Shown here one piece after another: positions 32,473 to 36,045 of a stretch of DNA of 64,000 nt (the first letter of the stretch is position 1; the number at the start of each line of letters is the position of its first letter). The notes beneath the pieces are model-generated. The model ran no database searches. It was not told where the DNA came from and worked only from the letters and a program-made list of their open reading frames with translations. A program made the position numbers and the translations under genes. The DNA is from Bdellovibrionota bacterium (GTDB lineage Bacteria; Bdellovibrionota; UBA1018; CAIPTA01; JAALKR01): positions 281,838 through 345,837 of the forward strand of contig CBDBMJ010000003.1 in NCBI GenBank assembly GCA_965207455.1, written 5' to 3'.

Positions 32473-33612
32473 GGTGTTGTTGCATAAATAGCTCCAAATT
32501 GAGTCTGTGAGAGACCTCTAGTGCCCTCTGGGGCCTTCTGACGCGCCTAACTATATACCTTCAGCAAAAATATACTTAAATTGAAAGAAGGCAAGGAGGC
32601 CGACTATGAGTAAAAGAACGAAGAAAAACATCAATTGGTCAGAATATAACCGAGCATTGATAAAGCGTGGAGATATAAATTTATGGCTCGATGACGATAT
32701 GATAAAAAATTGGTATGCTCCTAGAAATCCCAACCCCCAGCGAGGTCGTCCATTCATATATAGTGATCGCTGTATAGAGCTAGGACTTATCTTTCGTAGC
32801 CTATTTCATTTACCCTTGCGTGCAACCCAAGGGTTTATGTGTTCGATGTTTAAGCTCATTAAAATAGGAGCATTAAAAATTCCAAACTATAGTTCATTTT
32901 CTCGACGTTCAAAAGATTTAAAAGTAAATATTTCCTATAAAGCAAAGACCCAAGGAATTACTGATATCGCCGTAGACTCTACCGGAATAAAAATCTTTGG
33001 AGAGGGTGAGTGGAAGATGCGAACTCATGGTAAAGGGAAGCGAAGGACTTGGAGAAAACTACACTTGGCAGTAGACCCCGATAGCCATCAAATCGTGAGC
33101 ATGGAACTGACAAAAGCCACTGTCCACGACGATCAAATGATGAAGCCATTACTAAAAGGTTTAAAAAATATAGGCAGAGTATATGCTGATGGCGCCTATG
33201 TCTCTAGAAATTGCTTTACTGCTATCGCAGAAACTGGAGCAAAGGCCAGCATAGCTCTCAGGACAGGTACATCAAAGTCTCAGGTCAGAGGAGACCCAGG
33301 TCTTAGTTTAAGGGATAAATTAGTTGAAGAGATTTGGAGTTATGGAGGAAGGCGAGCGTGGAAAAAACAAACAGATCATCACAAGCGATCAAATGTAGAA
33401 ACTTGCATGTATCGCTTCAAAAAAATACTAGGGAATACGCTCTCTAGCAGAAAATTTGAAAATCAGCTCACTGAAGCAAGAACTAAGGTCTTCATTCTCA
33501 ATCGGATGACTCATTTAGGAATGCCCCATTCCTCTACTATTACCTAAAAGATATGTGGATAGGCTCCCTATACCTCAAAATCAATCCTTACAAAATATTA
33601 CGCAACAACCCC
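32473..33612 (+). mobile_element. IS5-family (IS903 group) element, 1140 bp, 9-bp TSD
   Basis: IRs GGTGTTGTTGCATAA / GGGGTTGTTGCGTAA; AAGATTAAA duplicated at 32464-32472 and 33613-33621. Confidence 0.93.
32606..33547 (+). CDS. IS5/IS903-group DDE transposase
   Basis: NWSEYNRALIKRG, VDSTGIK.FGEGEW, RTWRKLHLAVD, ADGAY, RSNVETCMYRFK. Confidence 0.95.
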   Translation: MSKRTKKNINWSEYNRALIKRGDINLWLDDDMIKNWYAPRNPNPQRGRPFIYSDRCIELGLIFRSLFHLPLRATQGFMCSMFKLIKIGALKIPNYSSFSRRSKDLKVNISYKAKTQGITDIAVDSTGIKIFGEGEWKMRTHGKGKRRTWRKLHLAVDPDSHQIVSMELTKATVHDDQMMKPLLKGLKNIGRVYADGAYVSRNCFTAIAETGAKASIALRTGTSKSQVRGDPGLSLRDKLVEEIWSYGGRRAWKKQTDHHKRSNVETCMYRFKKILGNTLSSRKFENQLTEARTKVFILNRMTHLGMPHSSTIT

Positions 33613-33658: not shown

Positions 33659-34807
33659 ATGTCTCCAGAAAATCATCTCGTAAATCGCTTCATTTTGCCA
33701 GACTTGAAGTTCAAAAAATTCATAAAACAATCTAACAAGACGTTTCTCTTCTTCTGCGTTAAGAAGAGCCAATGGGAAGTATGCCGGAAGTGCCCCACAA
33801 AATCCTTCTCCGTTCATGACAAGAGAATGGTAACCATCAGAGATGCTCGGCTTCAAAACAAGCATGTGAAGCTCATTATTGAGAAACGGCGGTTCCGCTG
33901 TCCAAGGTGCAAATCTGTATTCACTGAATCTATTGATGGTATTAAGGTTGGATTTAGAACCACAGAGAAGTATCGTAATGAACTCCTTTATGACTTCAGG
34001 CAATCGTCTTGCGCAACAACTGTTGCTAAAAAGCTAAGATGCTCCACCTCTTTTGTGACTTACACTGTGAATGAAAGGCTTGAGCTTGAACTTAGAAAGT
34101 CAAGGAACGCTCCTTGGTCTAAAACAGTCTTAATTGATGAGCATGCTTTTGGTCGCAATAAGAAATTCAGGATAAAAGATTTTGTTACTTGCTTTGTCGA
34201 TAATCCTCGTCGATGCCTAAGAGAAATGGCATCTGGTCGTAATCATACTGATCTTTATGAAGCTATTAAACACATCCCTGGGAAAGAAAATGTATCTCAT
34301 GTTGTTATTGATATGAGTGCAAACTATAAAAATTTTGCAGAAAGTTATTTCACAAATGCTCGTATTGTTGTTGATAAGTTTCATGTTTTAAGACTTCTCC
34401 AGCCAGCAATAAGGAAATATAGGAAAGAGGTTACCGGTGATGACAGGAAGAATCCCATAAGGAGGCTTCTCTTAAGGAACGGGAGAGATTTAAAAACCTA
34501 TCAAAAAAGGGCGATTGGAAGATTTTGTAGAGAAAACCCTACCCTTGGTGAGGTCTATAATTTCAAAGAGCGAATAAATAACTTTTATAGAATAAAAGGC
34601 TTCAATCAAGCATCAAGAATTTTAACAAAGATCACTGATGATATGGCCTTATCCAAAATAAAAGAGATTAGAACGATGCGTAGAACAGGTCTCACCAATG
34701 CTCGTATTGAAGGATTCAATCGAAAGTGTAAGCTCCTTCAGCGGCAGGCATACGGTTTTCAAAACTTTGAGAACTATAGGCTGCGAGCACTCTACAAATG
34801 TAGTTAG
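33659..34807 (+). CDS. ISL3 transposase (probable short internal deletion)
   Basis: CxxC...RFRCxxC zinc finger, IDE, IDMS, VDKFHV, TNARIEGFNRKCK..R.AYGF.NF.NYRLR. Confidence 0.9.
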   Translation: MSPENHLVNRFILPDLKFKKFIKQSNKTFLFFCVKKSQWEVCRKCPTKSFSVHDKRMVTIRDARLQNKHVKLIIEKRRFRCPRCKSVFTESIDGIKVGFRTTEKYRNELLYDFRQSSCATTVAKKLRCSTSFVTYTVNERLELELRKSRNAPWSKTVLIDEHAFGRNKKFRIKDFVTCFVDNPRRCLREMASGRNHTDLYEAIKHIPGKENVSHVVIDMSANYKNFAESYFTNARIVVDKFHVLRLLQPAIRKYRKEVTGDDRKNPIRRLLLRNGRDLKTYQKRAIGRFCRENPTLGEVYNFKERINNFYRIKGFNQASRILTKITDDMALSKIKEIRTMRRTGLTNARIEGFNRKCKLLQRQAYGFQNFENYRLRALYKCS

Positions 34808-35028
34808 GGCCAGAACTAGATGCCTTTGAAGGGCCTAAGGTTCGTTTTGGAGTATAGGAAGCACTGATTTTAAAAAATCAGCTGGATAGCTTTATCTTAA
34901 ATCCTATAAATATGTTGAAAATGACTATAAATCATGCGATATCCATGAACAGAAACTGAAAGTTGTTACTCGTGTGAGCCTCTAGGACTGTGTTTTGGAA
35001 TGACTTCCACCATTAACTTTAGAGACCC

Positions 35029-35493
35029 GATATAACGCATTAATTTTTGGCGGAGAGAGAGGGCTCGACCCACTACAGGAAATCCCTTCCAGAGGATTTC
35101 CCTGCGTAGGCTCTCCTACGCAATTTAAAAAATCTTCCACGATTTTTTTCCCCTCACTAGTCCCTCGCTAGCTCGGAACCAGCGCGGGTCATTGCTCCGT
35201 GTTCGAATCCCTCTGCTTATTTTCCTATGTGTGGATGCAAGGGTTTGAAAGGTTTTTATTCCACTTTGTATGTGGCGGAGAGAGAGGGCTCGACCCACTA
35301 CAGGAAACCCCCTCCAGGGATTTCCCTGCGTAGGCTCTCCTACGCAATTTAAAAAATCTTCCACGATTTTTTTCCCCTCACTAGTCCCTCGCTAGCTCGG
35401 AACCAGCGCGGGTCATTGCTCCGTGTTCGAATCCCTGCTTGTTATCGCATTTTGTTGGAGCATACTCACCTTTAGATACAACGCATTAATTTT
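35029..35493 (-). repeat. tRNA-linked array: two ~170-bp structured repeats (35048-35218, 35273-35440), each ending in the tRNA-Ser 3' end, with 53-54-bp unique spacers
   Basis: near-identical cores 225 bp apart; each ends (minus strand) CCCTCTCTCTCCGCCA; 35029-35063 repeats 35475-35509 with 1 mismatch. Confidence 0.9.
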
Positions 35494-35581
35494 TGGCGGA
35501 GAGAGAGGGATTCGAACCCCCGGTGCCTTGCGGCACACCGGTTTTCAAAACCGGAGCATTCGGCCACTCTGCCATCTCTCC
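35494..35581 (-). tRNA. tRNA-Ser(TGA)
   Basis: GGAGAGATGGCAGAGTGGCCGAATGCTCCGGTTTTGAAAACCGGTGTGCCGCAAGGCACCGGGGGTTCGAATCCCTCTCTCTCCGCCA: long variable arm, anticodon TGA, G discriminator, encoded CCA. Confidence 0.97.
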
Positions 35582-35594
35582 TGCTTTCAGTCCT

Positions 35595-35623
35595 AGAATA
35601 CCGTATAGCACTGAAATCATCAA
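35595..35623 (-). promoter_or_regulatory. putative sigma70 promoter of tRNA-Ser
   Basis: TTGATG-17 bp-TATTCT, 13 bp upstream of the tRNA. Confidence 0.55.
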
Positions 35624-35697
35624 ATGAATGTGTGCTCCCCATCCATTCACTGAACAAAAATTCGTATGTTTTTGCAAAACTTTAAAAACCACCCCAC

Positions 35698-35726
35698 TTG
35701 TCAACGTCCTTTTTCAATATTATAGT
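35698..35726 (+). promoter_or_regulatory. putative sigma70 promoter of the grx operon
   Basis: TTGTCA-17 bp-TATAGT. Confidence 0.5.
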
Positions 35727-35784
35727 GGAATTTGGTCTTGTGCCGAAAAAATAACTAGAAGCAACAAAAAAGGACTTTAAAATC

Positions 35785-36045
35785 ATGAAAAAAATAAGCA
35801 TACACACAACAGACTACTGCTCGTTTTGTACGCGCACTAAAGGCTTGCTCGATAGTCTTGGTCTTGCCTTTGAAGAATATAAGGTGGACCGGGAGGACAT
35901 ACAGGCGTGGCAGGATTTAGAGAAAAGATCTGGACTGAAAACAATGCCACAAATTTTTATAGATGAGCTATGTATTGGTGGCTTCCAAGAATTACATGCC
36001 ATGAACGAAAGTGGCGAATTAAAAAAAATATTAGCAAAGGAATAA
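35785..36045 (+). CDS. grxC: dithiol glutaredoxin (Grx3-like)
   Basis: CSFC, TMPQIFI, IGGF. Confidence 0.85.
   Translation: MKKISIHTTDYCSFCTRTKGLLDSLGLAFEEYKVDREDIQAWQDLEKRSGLKTMPQIFIDELCIGGFQELHAMNESGELKKILAKE

Follow-up and report, generated by a model that had tools for sequence, protein, structure and literature searches.

The window, i.e. the whole stretch of 64,000 nt analysed here, belongs to a genome designated G000, whose contigs appear as C1 and C3 in coordinates. tRNA-Ser(TGA) is the sole tRNA gene found in it by ARAGORN; it is located on the minus strand and is followed downstream, on the same strand, by two repeat units, as a preliminary description of this locus had proposed. 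The features of the array and the gene of the insertion sequence that truncates it are listed below in the reading direction of the tRNA gene.

35719-35746, minus strand: promoter-like site upstream of the tRNA gene, with 10/12 sigma-70 hexamer matches (consensus scan only)
35494-35581, minus strand: tRNA-Ser(TGA) gene, CCA encoded (ARAGORN; Rfam tRNA, 57.8 bits)
35440-35493, minus strand: linker S1 (formerly spacer 1) between the tRNA CCA and unit 1 (homology to tRNA-Ser(GGA)-array linkers; array layout)
35270-35439, minus strand: repeat unit 1, core fold and tRNA 3'-end copy, the copy at 35273-35288 (model R1 match G000:C3:317107-317276, 169.5 bits; repeat families D1 and D3)
35216-35272, minus strand: linker S2 (formerly spacer 2), homologous to linkers behind tRNA-Ser(GCT) and tRNA-Trp
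35045-35215, minus strand: repeat unit 2, core fold and tRNA 3'-end copy (model R1 match G000:C3:316882-317052, 170.1 bits)
35201-35214, minus strand: unit 2, 5' strand of the closing helix P1 (inverted repeat I2, 14 nt, 100% complementary to 35504-35517)
35151-35188, minus strand: unit 2, long hairpin P2 (constrained folds; covariation in helices 2-5)
35127-35148, minus strand: unit 2, hairpin P3 with GGA in the loop (constrained folds; loop GGA enrichment elsewhere)
35106-35111 paired with 35068-35073, minus strand: unit 2, helix P5, which encloses P4
35077-35102, minus strand: unit 2, hairpin P4 with GGA in the loop (folds; loop GGA enrichment elsewhere)
35048-35063, minus strand: unit 2, 16-nt copy of the tRNA-Ser 3' end (repeat families D2 and D3; sequence)
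35029-35047, minus strand: start of a third linker, a copy of the first 19 nt of S1 (family D2, 97% over 35 nt)
33659-34807, plus strand: transposase gene of the ISL3-family insertion sequence that truncates the array (Pfam DDE_Tnp_ISL3, 4.5e-41; Zn_ribbon_ISL3)

The two units share a 119-nt block of 100% identity (35094-35212 and 35318-35436) and a second block of 54 nt with 89% identity, and the last 16 nt of the tRNA recur exactly at the end of each (35273-35288 and 35048-35063), which bears out the earlier recognition of two ~170-nt repeats with the same tRNA end. In unit 2, the 16-nt copy comprises the T-stem 3' strand, the acceptor 3' strand, the discriminator and the CCA; P1 takes its 3' strand from the first part of this copy, and the remainder is an unpaired tail. 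The 5' strand of P1 in this unit is perfectly complementary to tRNA positions 53-66, i.e. to the T loop and the T-stem 3' strand, and both ends of the repeat units derive from positions 54-76 of tRNA-Ser(TGA). The third linker stops after 19 nt and the end of the insertion sequence abuts position 35028, in agreement with the reported cut by ISL3; a second copy of the insertion sequence cuts the tRNA-Ser(GCT) array of the same genome at the equal relative place. Terminator-like sites, said to be absent between tRNA and repeats, were not found anywhere in 34600-36000, compared with 1.5 expected in shuffled sequences. The promoter-like site at 35719-35746 is a candidate start of a transcript comprising tRNA and array, and a weak one, because two sites were found where 2.1 are expected in shuffles. 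RNA of linker plus unit 2 folds better than 200 of 200 shuffled sequences (z = -3.65). The inverted copy of T loop and T stem at the unit start had been missed in the preliminary description, as had the genome-wide spread of the repeat.

That description had suggested a search for the core in its own and in related genomes. The search gave 21 matches in G000, and plain BLAST against 40 relatives detected the core in only one genome, for which reason a covariance model was required. In G000, the core is located directly behind tRNA-Met, tRNA-Arg(CCT), tRNA-Ser(GGA), tRNA-Pro(GGG), tRNA-Glu, tRNA-Ser(TGA), tRNA-Trp and tRNA-Ser(GCT), and one further array is parted from tRNA-Gln by an inserted island; at least nine tRNA loci carry the core, with one to five units at 9-10 loci, and four of nine arrays finish in truncated cores. 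The covariance model identified the element in 41 of the 127 genomes of the class and in eight of 127 genomes sampled from other classes of the phylum. Its occurrence is patchy even inside a genus (two of six genomes in one case), and the copy number varies from 1 to about 20. Among the 88 distinct units in other genomes, 64 lie downstream of a tRNA gene on their own strand in the fetched locus, with 39 at a distance of at most 80 nt, and the core occurs behind at least 19 anticodon species of tRNA. Such variable copy numbers and truncated array ends are as compatible with a dispensable or selfish element as with an RNA gene.

In a unit of ~165-170 nt, positions 54-66 of the adjacent tRNA come first, in inverted copy; a conserved core containing five further helices (P2-P6) follows, and a direct copy of the local tRNA from the T loop to the CCA, comprising the last 18-21 nt including CCA, forms the end. 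The agreement of these ends with the tRNA was determined by alignment columns for the 64 units with an upstream tRNA. The last 18 nt match local tRNA positions 59-76 in at least 17 of 18 positions in 40/64 units (18/18 in 35 and 17/18 in five more), and at least 16 matches are reached in only 0.2% of non-cognate unit-tRNA pairs; the 5' 8-mer equals the reverse complement of positions 59-66 in at least seven of eight positions in 38/64 units, compared with 3% of non-cognate pairs. Unusual T loops (A57) are followed by both unit ends in nine of the 11 such loci listed, the remaining two (L134 and L142) being miscalls of the tRNA end by ARAGORN. The locus-variable parts of the units are copies of the adjacent tRNA and not foreign DNA. 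In the modelled fold, the two tRNA-derived ends pair with each other as the closing helix P1, and the acceptor 3' strand and CCA form a single-stranded tail. A derivation of the 5' strand as a direct copy of the T-stem 5' strand was rejected because with stems containing G-U pairs (tRNA-Ser, tRNA-Phe) the unit is the exact complement of the 3' strand. A miniature inverted-repeat transposable element (MITE) was also considered and rejected: the constant inverted motif is the T-loop hexamer alone, and the flanks come from the local tRNA. No transposase linked to the units was found in G000.

The fold is located on the tRNA-sense strand and has been kept by compensatory changes across a bacterial phylum. 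Within the six helices, changes on both sides occur at 43 of 45 pairs, paired cells amount to 87.2% as against 60.6% after shuffling, and the covariation score is 0.554, compared with 0.150 for shuffled and at most 0.115 for slid partners, in an alignment that was fitted to the structure of the model and in this way favours pairing. G-U and U-G pairs number 176 and A-C and C-A pairs 27, and this excess assigns the fold to the sense strand. MAFFT and RNAalifold alone gave only P1, P5 and part of P2, and the other helices were derived from constrained folds of single sequences. The family defines a fold of six helices with conserved unpaired nucleotides and two GGA loops, along with exact tRNA-copy rules. 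A pairing of the GGA loops with the T loop was rejected, as the loops are constant while tRNA positions 59-62 differ, and a supposed likeness between the P2 loop and a motif of plasmid single-strand origins was dropped.

Tyrosine integrases classically leave copies of tRNA 3' ends behind, and the units might be regarded as scars of island or phage integration, i.e. att sites with arms whose interior was deleted and which were subsequently duplicated in tandem (CIME-like). G000 indeed has an integrase-bearing island at the 3' end of tRNA-Gln, and the unit length of ~225 bp is near that of a typical attP. However, at least 19 anticodon species are too many for one integrase lineage, covariation at 43/45 pairs is unexpected for double-stranded protein-binding arms, the G-U pairs are strand-biased, no integrase adjoins the arrays, and an ordinary attP is devoid of an inverted target copy; we regard such scars as a very unlikely origin of the units.

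The linkers had been described as spacers of 53 and 54 nt that are unrelated to each other and unique. The lengths stand and S1 and S2 do not align mutually, but they are not unique: S2 is 94% identical over 51 nt to G000:C3:370920-370970 in the tRNA-Ser(GCT) array and 88% identical over 51 nt to C3:353648-353698 behind tRNA-Trp, S1 is 96.6% identical over 29 nt to all three linkers of the tRNA-Ser(GGA) array (G000:C1:1457686-1458156), and the third linker, together with the preceding tRNA-end copy, repeats the tRNA end and the start of S1. In most arrays the linkers are identical within the array, and the same linker begins right after the CCA behind both tRNA-Ser(GCT) and tRNA-Trp. In other genomes, the linker is most often 50-57 nt long and frequently consists of the tRNA's own terminator hairpin or a palindrome; A/C-rich tracts and palindromes of the local flank also occur. 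At the tRNA-Leu(CAG) locus of three related genomes, the linkers differ completely and core and flank are kept. A foreign origin of the spacers, for which BLAST had been recommended, found no support, as the phage collection contained no match to either spacer and the plasmid collection none to the whole array including the spacers.

Since the linkers are common to several arrays and repeated within arrays, they are a variable joint between tRNA and core and not acquired guides, contrary to the idea of a unit-wise acquisition of unique guide spacers. A CRISPR-like record, to which new units with unique spacers would be added at the tRNA end to give guide RNAs, could draw on the similar linker lengths (53/54 nt here and mostly 50-57 nt elsewhere) and on the complete exchange of the tRNA-Leu(CAG) linkers next to a constant core and flank. 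It was rejected in view of the sharing of linkers between and within arrays, including the return of the first linker as the third, their composition of terminator hairpins, A/C-rich tracts and local-flank palindromes, the lack of phage matches for the spacers and of plasmid matches for the array, and a repeat of ~170 nt, which far exceeds the length of CRISPR repeats; among the explanations weighed here we give it the least credence.

The array belongs to a large family of tRNA-linked repeats (TLRs), which is probably maintained in the following way. Read-through from the tRNA promoter would transcribe the units, the enzymes of tRNA-end processing would excise them at the CCA copies, as for RttR of E. 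coli, unequal recombination between the repeated tRNA ends would lengthen and shorten the arrays, and gene conversion, or moves bounded by the two inverted T-loop motifs, would keep the cores alike within a genome. These steps were inferred jointly, and we consider their combination fairly likely. Transcription of the array together with the tRNA finds its support in the lack of a predicted terminator within the window. A terminator-like hairpin with a T run lies between tRNA and core in 14 of the 39 units located at most 80 nt from the tRNA in other genomes, as judged by a crude detector, and at these loci read-through would be needed. The release of CCA-ended RNAs of ~220 nt by processing is plausible in view of the analogous RttR of E. 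coli. As a separate matter, gene conversion leaves unexplained how both cognate ends were first gained at a new tRNA locus.

Cores within a genome are alike irrespective of the tRNA: their identity is 0.672 within a genome between different tRNAs, and between genomes it is 0.560 for the same anticodon and 0.561 for different anticodons. The cores behind tRNA-Phe and tRNA-Met are 98% identical, the identity ending exactly at the inverted T-loop motifs beyond which the cognate ends differ, and in one subfamily a long palindrome extends from directly after the CCA, the inverted copy spanning the entire tRNA end. The tRNA-Leu(CAG) locus is filled in three genomes of one genus and without the element at nine other loci among those listed (12 fetched from 17 genomes searched). 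All these observations, as well as the grouping of cores by genome rather than tRNA type, the patchy presence with 1 to about 20 copies even inside one genus and the ragged distal ends of several arrays, would also suit a non-autonomous mobile cassette, akin to the tRNA-targeting element considered in the preliminary description, in which a core bounded by inverted T-loop motifs inserts behind tRNA genes and leaves inverted and direct copies of the segment from T loop to CCA. Insertion might proceed through a folded single-strand attachment site in which stem P1 rebuilds the tRNA target duplex, or by template switching at the palindromic T loop, and the tandem units would represent a replicating or integrated state. 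CTX-type phages and integron attC sites integrate through folded single strands, and with these att sites (CTX-phage attP, integron attC) and with MITEs the family shares inverted target-like copies flanking ~140 nt of structured DNA, tandem arrays and a structure conserved beyond the sequence.

In contrast to these att sites and MITEs, no recombinase or Rep partner was found by the search of G000, and unlike transposons and MITEs the family has no target-site duplication of the transposon kind, its flanks being copies of the adjacent tRNA and not element-specific. G000 (94.7% complete) yielded no hit for RVT_1, the TnpB zinc ribbon, the IS200 Y1 transposase or Phage_GPA, and a single one of its nine tyrosine recombinase matches is close to an array, inside a separate island of 10.7 kb. 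Moreover, neither free nor circular copies were observed, searches of the phage collection with the spacers and of the plasmid collection with the whole array gave no match, the abundant G-U pairs fit RNA better than DNA hairpins, and concerted evolution can account for the sharing of cores. We therefore judge the mobile cassette unlikely, and its stronger form, a self-propagating cassette that uses an undescribed mechanism to write inverted and direct copies of the target tRNA at its ends, is a shade more doubtful still. If mobile, the units would represent a new way of targeting tRNA genes, and if the self-propagating form were true, TLRs in general would be the footprint of widespread tRNA-targeting mini-elements.

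The exact CCA-linker junction at different tRNAs (Ser(GCT) and Trp), the cognate copy of 18-21 nt and the head-to-tail units with ragged distal ends have a further possible source in a tRNA-primed or tRNA-templated retroelement, for which retroviral primer sites and the Neurospora retroplasmid are analogues of tRNA-end priming. The 18-nt tRNA-end copy would act as the site of primer binding or template switching, and the units, copied via RNA, would be recombined into the tRNA gene. RVT_1 is without a match in G000, the one genome searched, and such a scheme does not account for the inverted cognate copy with which the core begins at its 5' end; a test by untemplated CCA is inapplicable, since these tRNA genes encode their CCA. 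A retroelement thus appears highly improbable.

Returning to a tRNA-linked repeat maintained by read-through, excision and recombination, the nearest known match are the TLRs of E. coli, in line with the kinship in design noted previously. According to PMC8144298, these have been known since 1978 and are still without function (Rudd 1999 and Egan & Landy 1978, cited therein); it lists 22 TLRs at 10 loci, each locus having one to five units in tandem that finish with the final 18-19 bp of the upstream gene. The kinds compared here are the 178-bp tyrT-tyrV repeats with the RttR/RtT RNA (RF00391) and rrA, rrB and rrF behind 5S rRNA genes. Both families are located directly behind stable-RNA genes on the same strand and consist of tandem units at many loci whose ends equal the 3' end of the upstream gene. 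The E. coli tyrT-tyrV unit also starts with the reverse complement of the T-stem/acceptor segment of the tRNA, and RttR folds with a closing helix of 10 bp that is built like P1. TLRs are defined by layout, and the family belongs to them by its adjacency to tRNA genes, the identity of its 3' ends and its tandem units at multiple loci. It differs from the E. coli repeats in its core, a larger six-helix fold with phylum-wide conservation. Homology was not detectable: for the E. coli region tyrT-tyrV, model R1 scored no higher than 6.2 bits (E = 0.11), the Rfam model RF00391 found no match in G000 (33 candidates scored) and did find its E. coli control, and an Rfam scan of the core gave no family at E up to 1. 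No account of the family was found in the literature on tRNA-linked repeats, rttR/tyrT repeats and T-loop integration. The phylum-wide family is new, and the TLR kind to which it belongs is already known and unexplained; dozens of diverged copies across a phylum provide a much better handle on the TLR problem.

The loops of P3 and P4 offer a tentative clue to function. In units from other genomes, GGA is present in the P3 loop of 62/88 (28.0 expected) and in the P4 loop of 67/88 (35.3 expected), compared with 25/88 (24.7 expected) for the control loop of P2; both units of the window carry it in P3 and P4, and GGA loops are absent from some members, e.g. L033 and L035. CsrA is encoded in G000 (G000:C3:96930-97085, 89.3 bits) and in 119 of the 127 genomes of the class, so nearly universally that its co-occurrence with the element is uninformative and no co-variation can be read from it. 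Because two loops carry GGA beyond chance and CsrA is encoded, the function we favour, at less than even chances, is a titration of CsrA: the RNAs would bind the protein through the two GGA hairpin loops that each unit displays, at a level coupled to tRNA synthesis. Like CsrB/CsrC and RsmY/RsmZ, the predicted RNA has repeated hairpins with GGA in the loop, of which each unit contributes two and the tandem array a multiple, and its host encodes CsrA; unlike these, it is joined to tRNA genes instead of being a regulated gene of its own, and only about one in three genomes encoding CsrA contains the element. An RNA antagonist of CsrA is not known to us from the predatory Bdellovibrio group, and titration by these RNAs would link the activity of a global regulator in predators to the synthesis of tRNA. 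According to PMC8144298, the E. coli TLR RNA RrB binds CsrA in vitro via GGA motifs, and RrA and RrF have GGA motifs as in RrB, from which CsrA binding was inferred. In contrast to the GGA loops of the present family, the tRNA-operon TLRs of E. coli are predicted there to be CsrA non-binders, with all 19 scoring <0.01 in a CsrA-sponge predictor and only three rRNA-operon TLRs scoring high (PMC8144298).

In a search of sequencing runs, one run was found to contain the stretch and is probably its source DNA, no usable RNA run turned up, and 22 runs share ~5% of the sampled words, possibly those of the tRNA only.

At tRNA-Ser(TGA), the layout and coordinates given in the preliminary description are borne out by the ARAGORN tRNA call, the sequence and a repeat comparison. 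On the minus strand, two units of about 170 nt follow the tRNA gene, the first preceded by a linker of 53 nt and the second by one of 54 nt; after them come the first 19 nt of a third linker, which is cut by an insertion sequence whose open reading frame encodes an ISL3 transposase, as had been described.

Features of the array in the window
35494-35581, minus strand, tRNA-Ser(TGA) gene (ARAGORN), the sole tRNA called in the window
33659-34807, ISL3 transposase open reading frame of the insertion sequence that ends the array

The two units share a 119-nt block with 100% identity and a 54-nt block with 89% identity, and both finish with 16 nt identical to the end of tRNA-Ser(TGA). Two features had been missed: the first 14 nt of each unit are perfectly reverse-complementary to the tRNA T loop and T-stem 3' strand, and the third linker copies the first (97% over 35 nt, tRNA-end copy included).

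In the window's own genome (G000, with contigs C1 to C3), 21 matches of the unit were found, and they lie mainly behind tRNA genes.

Arrays directly behind tRNA genes in the window's own genome
tRNA-Met, 4-5 units
tRNA-Arg(CCT), 1 unit
tRNA-Ser(GGA), 3 units
tRNA-Pro(GGG), 1 unit and fragments
tRNA-Glu, 1 unit and a fragment
tRNA-Ser(TGA), 2 units
tRNA-Trp, 1 fragment
tRNA-Ser(GCT), 2 units

The 3' end of every unit matches that of its own neighbouring tRNA and not that of tRNA-Ser. One more array of three units has no tRNA of its own and bears the tRNA-Gln 3' end; it is separated from tRNA-Gln by a 10.7-kb island, and a reading of the units in general as scars of islands is a weaker alternative. 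The island (within G000:C1:1227400-1239300) has genes for a tyrosine integrase, for an HTH_17 excisionase-like protein, for an N6/N4 methylase fused to an Mrr nuclease domain, for two Thoeris-like TIR proteins of the ThsB type and for an IS3-type transposase. It looks like a defence island inserted at the tRNA-Gln 3' end. The third unit behind tRNA-Ser(GGA) (G000:C1:1458167-1458353) carries an additional 16-nt copy of the tRNA 3' end in one of its hairpin loops (P3).

The preliminary description had taken the linkers for unique spacers, which would make this a CRISPR-like guide array. The array it saw is real, but the key premise of unique spacers fails: besides the third linker being a copy of the first, spacer 1 is 96.6% identical over 29 nt to all three tRNA-Ser(GGA) linkers, spacer 2 recurs behind tRNA-Ser(GCT) (94%) and tRNA-Trp (88%), and linkers are identical inside most arrays of this genome. 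Neither a phage collection searched with both window spacers nor plasmid records searched with the whole array, spacers included, gave a match. Elsewhere, in other genomes, the commonest spacing between CCA and core is 50-57 nt; a simple detector flagged 14 of 39 close units as having a terminator-like hairpin plus a T run, and other linkers are A/C-rich. One linker class of 118-196 nt forms a long palindrome starting directly after CCA. The centre of these palindromes is conserved and their arms are specific to the locus; after them the whole tRNA end stands as a reverse complement, either degenerate or complete. In a subfamily (fetched loci L054, L059, L065, L108, L112, L135 and others) a further conserved module, about 75 nt long, lies between tRNA and core; it has a central hairpin and pyrimidine-rich flanks and sits in a palindrome with 25-45-nt arms from CCA onward. 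At tRNA-Leu(CAG), compared at 12 fetched loci of one genus of which all 17 genomes were searched, three loci bear the element and nine do not; the three share core and downstream flank and have unrelated linkers, namely a terminator palindrome, a palindrome whose arms copy the native flank, and another palindrome. Linkers do turn over, but they consist of local or hairpin sequence and not of captured foreign DNA. The guide-array reading is one of the weaker alternatives.

Of 88 distinct units collected from other genomes, 64 lie downstream of a tRNA on the same strand within the fetched locus, 39 of them within 80 nt. In 35 of these 64 the final 18 nt are fully identical to positions 59-76 of the local tRNA, and in five more 17 of the 18 match; only 0.2% of non-cognate pairs match at 16 or more. 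At the 5' side, the 8 nt ahead of a conserved hexamer are the reverse complement of positions 59-66 at at least 7 of 8 positions in 38 of the 64 units, a level reached by 3% of non-cognate pairs. Unusual T loops, with A at position 57, are mirrored by both unit ends at 9 of the 11 loci listed, the other two being tRNA-end miscalls; since both ends follow these T loops, the local copy comprises approximately positions 56-76 in direct and 54-66 in inverted orientation. A tRNA-primed retroelement as the source of such units is likewise a weaker reading. The cores, in turn, are shared across tRNA loci: in two genomes of a single genus, a core behind tRNA-Phe and one behind tRNA-Met are 98% identical, the identity being bounded exactly by the two inverted T-loop motifs and everything outside being locus-specific. 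Cores at different tRNAs of the same genome have an identity of 0.672, compared with 0.560 (same anticodon) and 0.561 (different anticodons) between genomes, and cores are therefore either homogenised inside genomes or transferred among tRNA loci.

Constrained single-sequence folds and alignments agree on the architecture of the unit. The two tRNA-derived ends pair with each other as helix P1. The two junction strands form helix P6, which is Watson-Crick paired in some members and has tandem G-A pairs in others; inside it lie the long hairpin P2 and hairpin P3. Next come a conserved unpaired block and P5 with hairpin P4 enclosed, and the acceptor 3' strand, discriminator and CCA form a single-stranded tail of 10-11 nt. 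In the seed alignment of 19 units, which was not fitted to the model, 24 of 45 pairs show changes on both sides, a value reached by none of 500 shuffles (mean 13.6; slid controls 11-18). The alignment of the 88 units was fitted to the model and hence favours pairing; in it, 87.2% of cells are paired (60.6% shuffled), 43 of 45 pairs show both-side changes and the covariation score is 0.554 (0.150 shuffled, at most 0.115 slid). G-U plus U-G pairs (176) outnumber A-C plus C-A (27), and the folded strand is therefore the tRNA-sense strand. No Rfam family matched the core at E up to 1.

By BLAST, the core was found in only 1 of 40 relatives. An exact-pattern scan with one genome per species matched 12 contigs, most of them labelled Bacteriovoracaceae, Oligoflexia, Oligoflexus or Bdellovibrionales, two 'Deltaproteobacteria', one 'Pseudomonadota' and one, of 2 kb, 'Saccharibacteria'; for 8 of the 12, a tRNA on the same strand was called by ARAGORN just upstream. 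The covariance model R1, built from the 19 units, reached further.

Genomes with R1 matches
Order, 4 of 11
Class (E up to 1e-5), 41 of 127
Class, restricted to genomes of good quality, 25 of 75
Sample from the remaining classes of the phylum, 8 of 127

Copies per genome range from 1 to about 20, and the six genomes of one genus hold 20, 2, 0, 0, 0 and 0. Given this spread and uneven copy number, the family is old and widespread in the phylum, yet dispensable. The chief alternative, a non-autonomous mobile cassette, would accommodate the patchy distribution, the truncated distal units in four of the nine arrays of the window's genome, the independence of cores from tRNA identity and a target copied inverted at one end and directly at the other; we regard it as improbable. 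No partner enzyme was found in that genome, and no free copy was seen.

The object is a new, phylum-wide and well-structured family of tRNA-linked repeats (TLRs), of a kind already known. E. coli is described as having 22 TLR units at ten loci, one to five per locus, each closing with the last 18-19 bp of the tRNA or 5S gene that precedes it and with no function known (PMC8144298). In the region examined, the E. coli tyrT-tyrV unit likewise opens with the reverse complement of a tRNA T-stem/acceptor segment, and its RNA, RttR, folds with a 10-bp closing helix made from that inverted segment. The likeness to the tyrT repeats noted earlier is one of design, in the cognate 3' end and the inverted start, and homology is undetectable: R1 scored at most 6.2 bits on the tyrT-tyrV region, and the Rfam RtT model, which found its E. 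coli control, had no match in the window's genome. The family is of moderate to good interest because it brings the old open question of tRNA-linked repeats within experimental reach.

Transcription from the tRNA promoter would run on through the units; the window has no predicted terminator, in line with the earlier remark that none separates the units from the tRNA. Unit RNAs would be released at the CCA copies, as is reported for RttR and the TLR RNA RrB of E. coli, and array length would change by unequal recombination between the repeated tRNA ends; taken jointly, these steps are the rather probable mode of working. GGA occurs in the P3 loop of 62 of the 88 units (28.0 expected) and in the P4 loop of 67 (35.3 expected), compared with 25 for the control loop P2 (24.7 expected), and both window units carry it in P3 and P4. 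The canonical CsrA site is a GGA in a hairpin loop. A CsrA gene is present in the window's genome, and within the class in 119 of 127 genomes; RrB binds CsrA via GGA motifs in vitro (PMC8144298). Titration of CsrA coupled to tRNA synthesis may tentatively be proposed as the function; against it stand the lack of co-variation of CsrA with the element, the missing GGA loops of some members and the prediction that E. coli tRNA-operon TLRs do not bind CsrA (PMC8144298).

Some further observations concern the same genome. ARAGORN predicts a tmRNA (G000:C1:816582-816939) with an odd tag peptide of unusual ending. The 5.6-kb third contig (G000:C2:1-5588) showed no repeat unit; it has genes for a tyrosine integrase, for a protein of the replication-relaxation family and for a MerR regulator, and is likely a small plasmid or an integrative element. 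The same ISL3 element, in two copies, interrupts the arrays of tRNA-Ser(TGA) (window 35028) and tRNA-Ser(GCT) (G000:C3:370503) at nearly equal relative places, 19 nt and 18 nt past the last tRNA-end copy, suggesting that the element prefers this site or that the two arrays have a history in common. A 53-nt repeat (window 33560-33612) adjoins an IS4/IS5-type DDE transposase gene (32606-33547), is probably the end of that element, and recurs at five more places in the genome, two of which adjoin other repeat arrays:

G000:C3:123405-123454, 53-nt repeat behind the tRNA-Pro array
G000:C3:36013-36061, 53-nt repeat beside a partial unit

Insertion sequences seem to gather at the distal ends of the arrays.
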